From assembly GCF_041248615.1 (NCBI RefSeq), contig NZ_CP158426.1: a stretch of DNA of 64,000 bases; one strand, written 5' to 3'. The stretch's first letter is position 1, and every line of letters begins with the position of its first letter. Below are positions 49,692 to 50,234 of this stretch, piece after piece. Source of the stretch: Escherichia coli. Lineage in GTDB: Bacteria; Pseudomonadota; Gammaproteobacteria; Enterobacterales; Enterobacteriaceae. Made by a program: the position numbers and the translations under genes. The notes beneath the pieces were generated by a model, which was not told where the DNA came from, did no database searches, and saw nothing but the letters and a program-made list of their open reading frames with translations.

Positions 49692-50061
49692 CTCGCATGG
49701 TTTTAAATATAAAATTTAAAAAACCGCCAAACAAATGAAGTGAAATTTCATACTTCTTTGCCTTATAAACAATTACCGCATCTTTAATATTACCTGCATT
49801 TTGGTTATCTATAAGTTCAGCAATATCCATAACCTGCGATAAATGTTCCACTCCCGTAAACTCGAACCTTTTTCGTTCCCTTCCGGCTGTAAATTCATCA
49901 ACATAAAGTTCTGCCGTCAATATAAAATTATACTCGGTGTGGTGACATTCCATTCTGGTTTCTACTAAAACACCATCATGCCAGATAATATTGTCTAAAT
50001 TTTTCATACTATTAATCCAATCCATTACTTTCTGATAAAATTTCCTCTGGAAGTTTTTCAT
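49669..50061 (-). CDS. Hypothetical protein, 130 aa, no recognisable motif (first gene of novel cassette); start uncertain
   Basis: ORF track; AT-rich; alternative internal starts MDWINSM / MKNLDN; a 43-codon ORF in another frame overlaps its 5' end. Confidence 0.55.
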   Translation of the reverse strand: MKNFQRKFYQKVMDWINSMKNLDNIIWHDGVLVETRMECHHTEYNFILTAELYVDEFTAGRERKRFEFTGVEHLSQVMDIAELIDNQNAGNIKDAVIVYKAKKYEISLHLFGGFLNFIFKTMRVVDNEFE

Positions 50062-50234
50062 AGAAAGAGATTAAAGCCTGACCGACGCAATCAAGCTCTA
50101 TTATTCGCTCATAATACGATCTCATTAAAATATCATGCTTACTCATTGCAATACGTCCTGTTTACCATGGGCAGAGTATGAATGTAACTTATGTAAAATA
50201 GTACCGCCCTTGCTATTTTTCAGAATTCATAAAG

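Follow-up and report, generated by a model that had tools for sequence, protein, structure and literature searches.

What is a short reading frame that lies directly ahead of, and partly within, another small gene in a low-GC segment of the Escherichia coli chromosome? In the stretch analysed here (64,000 nucleotides, hereafter the window) hrpA (54194..50292, minus strand) and its terminator are followed by a low-GC island, ydcF and aldA, and the frame is found at the hrpA end of the island. An earlier note, made from the sequence alone, had described a minus-strand frame of 43 codons that opens with the ATG at 50144-50146, overlaps the next frame, a 130-aa ORF (50061..49669), by about 45 nt and stops before the internal Met codons of that ORF. 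Three readings had been offered: a leader peptide, the true N-terminus of a gene split by a frameshift, or a start of the 130-aa gene at one of its internal Met codons. The start (50146-50144) and the peptide, MSKHDILMRSYYERIIELDCVGQALISFYEKLPEEILSESNGLD, are exactly as described; the frame is closed by a TAA at 50014-50012. It comprises 44 sense codons, as does the peptide given in the note itself (44 residues), and the overlap amounts to 50 nt. The stop does precede the MKNLDN ATG (50007), which follows 4 nt later, but the MDWINSM ATG (50025) is situated inside the frame, upstream of its stop.

Judged by length alone, such a frame is not significant against chance: when the 284 nt that separate the hrpA stop from 50007 are shuffled, 13.5% of the shuffles yield an ATG-initiated ORF of at least 44 codons, as one would expect of a frame in AT-rich intergenic DNA that was never a gene. 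The frame is nevertheless more than a product of chance, because its first 35 codons are homologous to the N-terminus of a 141-aa E. coli protein (83% amino acid identity, tblastn E 1.7e-15; also matched by phmmer), and both the Shine-Dalgarno motif and the ATG are conserved with the intact ortholog. This homology refutes a chance origin, which deserves practically no credence. The stretch that contains the Shine-Dalgarno-like motif, AACAGGACGTATTGCAATG, is identical in the window, in O157 and in the lineages L006 and L013 of our six-lineage alignment, and diverged in L011 and L014. Ahead of the ATG at 50146, no sigma-70 consensus reached the threshold of a promoter scan.

The intact ortholog is found in E. 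coli O157:H7 TW14359. In this genome, a 141-codon gene (WP_000086434.1; ECSP_RS09805; L003:3555-3980) begins 145 nt after the hrpA stop, the same distance as in the window, and is followed after 4 nt by a 112-aa gene, then by genes for 143 and 125 aa, and finally by ydcF; these are genes 1 to 4 of the island. Alignment of the window with the O157 DNA yields near-identical flanks, 105 nt of homologous 5' coding sequence with 14 nucleotide differences, a gap of 291 nt and a shared TTAATAGnATGAAAAAT junction. Since the start and stop codons are the same in both, the net deletion of 291 nt, or 97 codons, is in frame. Gene 1 of O157 and the 44-codon ORF occupy orthologous positions, begin and end with the same codons and differ in length by a whole number of codons; the conserved core is missing from the shorter frame, and the next gene starts at 50007. 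These observations together make it very probable that the 44-codon ORF is the remnant of the 141-codon gene after a net in-frame internal deletion. On this view the ancestral 141-codon gene, which opened a series of up to four or five small genes in the low-GC island, lost a net 291 nt from its interior; still present are the ribosome-binding site, the ATG and codons 1-35, then some nine codons of uncertain origin and the original TAA. The coordinates of these and the neighbouring features are collected in the table.

Table. Features of the hrpA-ydcF island and its border with hrpA, in window coordinates.
Feature	Position	Strand	Basis
44-codon ORF with TAA; very probably what an in-frame internal deletion has left of island gene 1, a 141-codon gene in O157:H7	50012..50146	-	sequence, ORF list, same ATG and TAA as L003:3555-3980, 291 nt shorter
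Codons 1-35, homologous to the gene 1 N-terminus (helices 1-2, H3-17 and H21-31); exact span of the PGAP pseudogene	50042..50146	-	PGAP, tblastn, alignment, AF2
Junction segment ILSESNGLD, 27 nt; source within gene 1 not confidently assignable	50015..50041	-	alignments, shuffle test
AGGA Shine-Dalgarno-like motif, 9 nt upstream of the ATG at 50146, within AACAGGACGTATTGCAATG	50156..50159	-	sequence, alignment of six lineages
Stop-start junction TAATAGTATG: remnant TAA (ancestral gene 1 stop), second stop TAG, one base, gene 2 ATG	50005..50014	-	sequence, alignments
Spurious 18-codon N-terminal extension of the 130-aa ORF, MKNFQRKFYQKVMDWINS	50008..50061	-	O157 stops in frame; absent from homologs
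Island gene 2, 112 aa (MKNLDN...), WP_001523214.1; real extent of the 130-aa ORF	49669..50007	-	PGAP, homolog N-termini
Low-GC island flanked by hrpA and ydcF, with the gene 1 remnant, gene 2, gene 3 (49233..49682) and a gene 4 split by IS1414	47371..50217	-	K-12 comparison
hrpA intrinsic terminator hairpin, CCCGG...CCGGG then TTTTTT, common to K-12	50235..50267	-	sequence, K-12 homology
IS1414 (IS256 family), 1314 bp, in island gene 4, with 9-bp target-site duplication; transposase 47809..49017 (+)	47738..49051		

Lost from the window allele are roughly residues 36-42 and 46-135. Within the 27 nt that join the retained codons to the ancestral stop, ATTTTATCA agrees with gene 1 codons 43-45 at 9 of 9 nucleotides (shuffle p about 0.07); if it does represent these codons, the allele may have arisen through a 21-nt deletion in addition to a larger one. 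As a whole the junction segment aligns with the interior of gene 1 no better than shuffled sequences do (p = 0.07-0.8), and the end-points of the deletion are accordingly approximate.

The pseudogene status of this DNA is already recorded in RefSeq: PGAP has independently entered 50042..50146 as pseudogenic ("hypothetical protein; incomplete; missing C-terminus"), and the same DNA is labelled in this way in three genomes (R2K29_RS13695, CRT46_RS26945 and ACI3M7_RS26285). Whereas PGAP sees a C-terminally truncated fragment, our alignment points to an internal in-frame deletion that still reaches the ancestral stop. This distinction, together with the origin of the spurious 5' extension of the next ORF, is what the present analysis adds; the case itself is one of ordinary gene decay, with a pseudogene remnant.

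Close homologs of gene 1, 130-141 aa in length, are present in several diverged lineages at 72-100% amino acid identity, and an exhaustive HMMER search recovered 31 gene 1 representatives, including relatives of 170-190 aa with 35-44% identity. Because full-length or near full-length alleles occur in diverged lineages and the distant relatives measure 170-190 aa, the full-length gene can be regarded as the ancestral state, with the caveat that gene 1 is absent altogether from E. albertii. A search of Pfam returned no model for the family. The genomic contexts of the distant homologs, either arrays of small genes lacking a Pfam match or an ATPase_2 neighbour, are uninformative. The intact 141-aa protein in turn lacks about 45 C-terminal residues that are found in the distant homologs of 170-190 aa (P0028-P0045), and what counts as full length in E. 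coli may already be a shortened family member.

The AF2 model of the 141-aa protein (pLDDT 89.7) displays a single all-alpha domain of about nine helices, in which residues 1-35 form helices 1 and 2, and the last 14 residues (128-141) are predicted to be disordered. Comparison of this fold retrieved generic HEAT/ARM-like helical repeats only and no specific relative. The window allele resembles WP_000086434.1 in its position, its Shine-Dalgarno motif, its ATG and TAA, its first 35 codons and the same 112-aa gene 4 nt further on, but it lacks 97 codons, all invariant family residues and seven of the approximately nine helices: the deletion takes away helices 3-9 of the single predicted domain and with them the invariant or near-invariant residues R38, R39, P49, F61, I62, F80 and Q93. 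Because only two of about nine helices of one compact domain remain, it is very unlikely, on the strength of this model, that the 44-residue product retains the function of the ancestral protein.

The retained codons are weakly suggestive of relaxed constraint. The remnant carries K3 and M8, compared with R3 and L8 in all other close homologs, and its 35 codons differ from those of O157 by a total divergence of 13%, with a dN of 0.10 and a dN/dS of about 0.28, which is not 1 and is based on only 14 substitutions. For island genes 2-4 dN against O157 is 0.04-0.06, and local dS, to which the total divergence of the remnant comes close, ranges from 0.06 to 0.23 (hrpA 0.18, ydcF 0.10). Alternatively, the 13% divergence of the remnant could reflect the import of a diverged allele.

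The first of the earlier readings, a leader peptide, would make the frame an attenuation-type regulatory element that controls the island genes. Its setting has a certain likeness to that of leuL and trpL, which are likewise short ORFs located 5' of co-oriented genes and just downstream of a terminator, and the frame does stand at the 5' end of an apparent operon. A simple scan moreover gives one terminator-like hairpin inside the ORF (50100..50072). However, this hairpin has only four G-C pairs out of 13 and falls in sequence that is conserved as coding, and in other lineages the orthologous sequence is the 5' end of the 141-codon protein-coding gene, so that the homologs of the remnant are full-length proteins. 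In contrast to leuL and trpL, the remnant possesses neither an attenuator structure nor a run of regulatory codons, and Rfam lends it no meaningful support: the only match is Leu_leader, at 19.5 bits against a gathering score of 50, and it is placed on the hrpA terminator. RNA folding of the region is likewise unremarkable (MFE z = -1.05). A regulatory leader is thus very improbable.

The second reading takes the 44-codon frame and the 130-aa ORF for parts of one gene, the former being its true N-terminus and a frameshift having separated the two; its appeal comes from two frames that overlap on the same strand. It holds in so far as the frame is the genuine N-terminus of a damaged gene, but that gene is a separate, upstream gene of 141 codons, and the damage is an in-frame loss of 291 nt. 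A frame fusing the two, for which the earlier note had suggested a comparison with homologous cassettes, was not found: homologous loci all have two genes, always divided by TAATAG, and a search of 5.8 billion clusters found no fused gene 1-gene 2 protein. Furthermore, the 44-aa N-terminus is that of an all-alpha family whose members measure 141-190 aa, and the homologs of gene 2 have their N-termini at or close to MKN and, in E. albertii, are present without any gene 1. A frameshifted fusion is almost certainly not the explanation of the two frames.

The deletion also accounts for the apparent length of the next ORF. In O157 several stops are in frame upstream of the gene 2 ATG, and the frame from the ATG at 50061 is open in the window because the deletion removed stops that are present in full-length alleles. 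No database homolog contains the extension from 50061; their N-termini correspond to 50025 (118 aa) or 50007 (112 aa), and a conserved homolog start at 50061, which the earlier note would have counted against its upstream frame, was looked for and none begins there. In E. albertii, gene 2 (62-65% protein identity) sits after a different upstream gene, begins with ATGAAAAAT preceded by TTAATAAT, and therefore has a start equivalent to 50007. The surrounding motif TTAATA(G/A)nATGAAAAAT recurs in five of the six aligned lineages as well as in E. albertii, with ATGGAAAAT in L013. These comparisons, together with the PGAP start at 50007, bear out the third of the earlier readings, a start of the 130-aa gene at an internal Met, and point to 50007 as the best start of gene 2; 50025 is the less likely alternative. 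For annotation, the 130-aa ORF should accordingly be read as a 112-aa gene from 50007, and the 44-codon frame as a pseudogene remnant. The AF2 model of gene 2, built from 10 sequences, is unusable (pLDDT 38.8). Genes 2 and 3 overlap by 14 nt (gene 3 ATG at 49682, gene 2 stop ending at 49669), which is consistent with an operon; the TTG start of gene 3 at 49691 in the ORF list is three codons upstream of the PGAP start.

Island sequence is present at the hrpA-ydcF site in 586 of 5426 complete E. coli genomes, an O157-like 5' end of gene 1 in 335 and the deleted allele in 251. The ORF is intact in nearly all of these 251, an observation that carries no statistical power because the genomes are at least 99% identical (247 of the 251 at this level). 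In one carrier of the deletion allele, E. coli strain 98224 (L022:513-971), an inserted IS200C separates the hrpA terminator from the remnant ORF.

Other lineages have lost gene 1, or its neighbours, in different ways. In L009:5001-5138 gene 1 is frameshifted after codon 35, near a GGAAAA run, and encodes a product of 45 aa (P0002). In L006:5001-5393 the frameshift is near codon 127 and most of gene 3 is deleted, in L010:5001-5399 residues 1-107 of gene 1 are fused to residues 64-125 of gene 4 with the loss of genes 2-3, and in L004:3985-4323 an internal stop interrupts gene 2. The damaged forms of gene 1 (the 45-aa P0002, the frameshifted 130-aa P0013-P0018, the gene1::gene4 fusions P0021/P0023 and the 83-aa P0024-26) share with the window allele that the same gene has been damaged independently at the same site. 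They differ from it in their lesions, which are either frameshifts or more extensive deletions with fusion to gene 4; the native stop is in frame in the window type alone. An 'EE' breakpoint shared with P0002 was considered as a recombination junction and rejected in favour of a simple frameshift after codon 35. The island is in general decay, with many independent lesions across E. coli lineages, and offers a convenient natural series for studying gene loss, without any new mechanism.

That the native stop has stayed in frame in the window type can have two explanations. On the one hand, a deletion has a prior of 1/3 of being in frame by chance. On the other hand, a net in-frame deletion that keeps the start, the Shine-Dalgarno motif and the native stop is the pattern expected if translation through to gene 2 is selected, and to this extent it speaks against a mere remnant. 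An alternative that is compatible with the remnant origin would therefore see the frame as a translated uORF, in which ribosomes that end at the TAA at 50012 reinitiate at the ATG at 50007 and so couple gene 2 and the later genes to it. The spacing of 4 nt between stop and start would permit this; the TAA-4 nt-ATG junction is conserved in the window, O157, L011, L013 and L014, and TTAATA(G/A)nATG in the lineages examined. Gene 2 has a weak Shine-Dalgarno (GGA at -11 to -9), compared with that of the remnant (AGGA at -13 to -10). However, the common 130-aa frameshift forms (L006) stop 38 nt before gene 2, and the frameshift allele of L009 stops about 290 nt before it. The same TTAATAATATG is found at the gene 2 of E. 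albertii, ahead of which gene 1 is missing; this suggests that expression of gene 2 does not require an upstream ORF. The folding of the RNA in this region is, as stated above, not unusual. We regard such coupling as unlikely, albeit less so than a leader peptide. A shade less likely again is the more specific proposal that the in-frame remnant persists because translating it brings ribosomes to the weak gene 2 start, and not simply because it has yet to be lost; a dead gene would then have been turned into a coupling uORF for the other island genes that remain. The remnant of gene 1 may still be translated, and if so, ribosomes would finish directly at the gene 2 start, just as on the ancestral gene.

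The island has a GC content of 35%, compared with 52-54% in its flanks, and is missing from K-12, whose sequence is homologous to the window up to about 50218 and again from about 47370. Against O157, its genes have dN/dS values of 0.3-0.6, compared with 0.02-0.07 for hrpA and ydcF. Searches of Pfam, NCBIfam and PADLOC gave nothing above noise for the 44-aa peptide and all island proteins, with the exception of DUF7021 and DUF2262 on an extra gene of 285 aa. This gene is located between hrpA and gene 1 in several loci, E. albertii included (L006:4017-4874, L011:3005-3862, L013:207-1064 and L020:4004-4861), and is absent from the window and from O157:H7; the island of E. albertii consists of the 285-aa gene and homologs of genes 2 and 4 only. 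A literature search on DUF2262, or on hrpA and ydcF in connection with immunity, found nothing. At the ydcF end of the island, gene 4, which is intact at 125 aa in L002:5188-5565, is divided in the window into a 21-codon N-terminal stub fused into IS1414 (ORF 48829..49113, minus strand) and a C-terminal ORF (47413..47748, minus strand).
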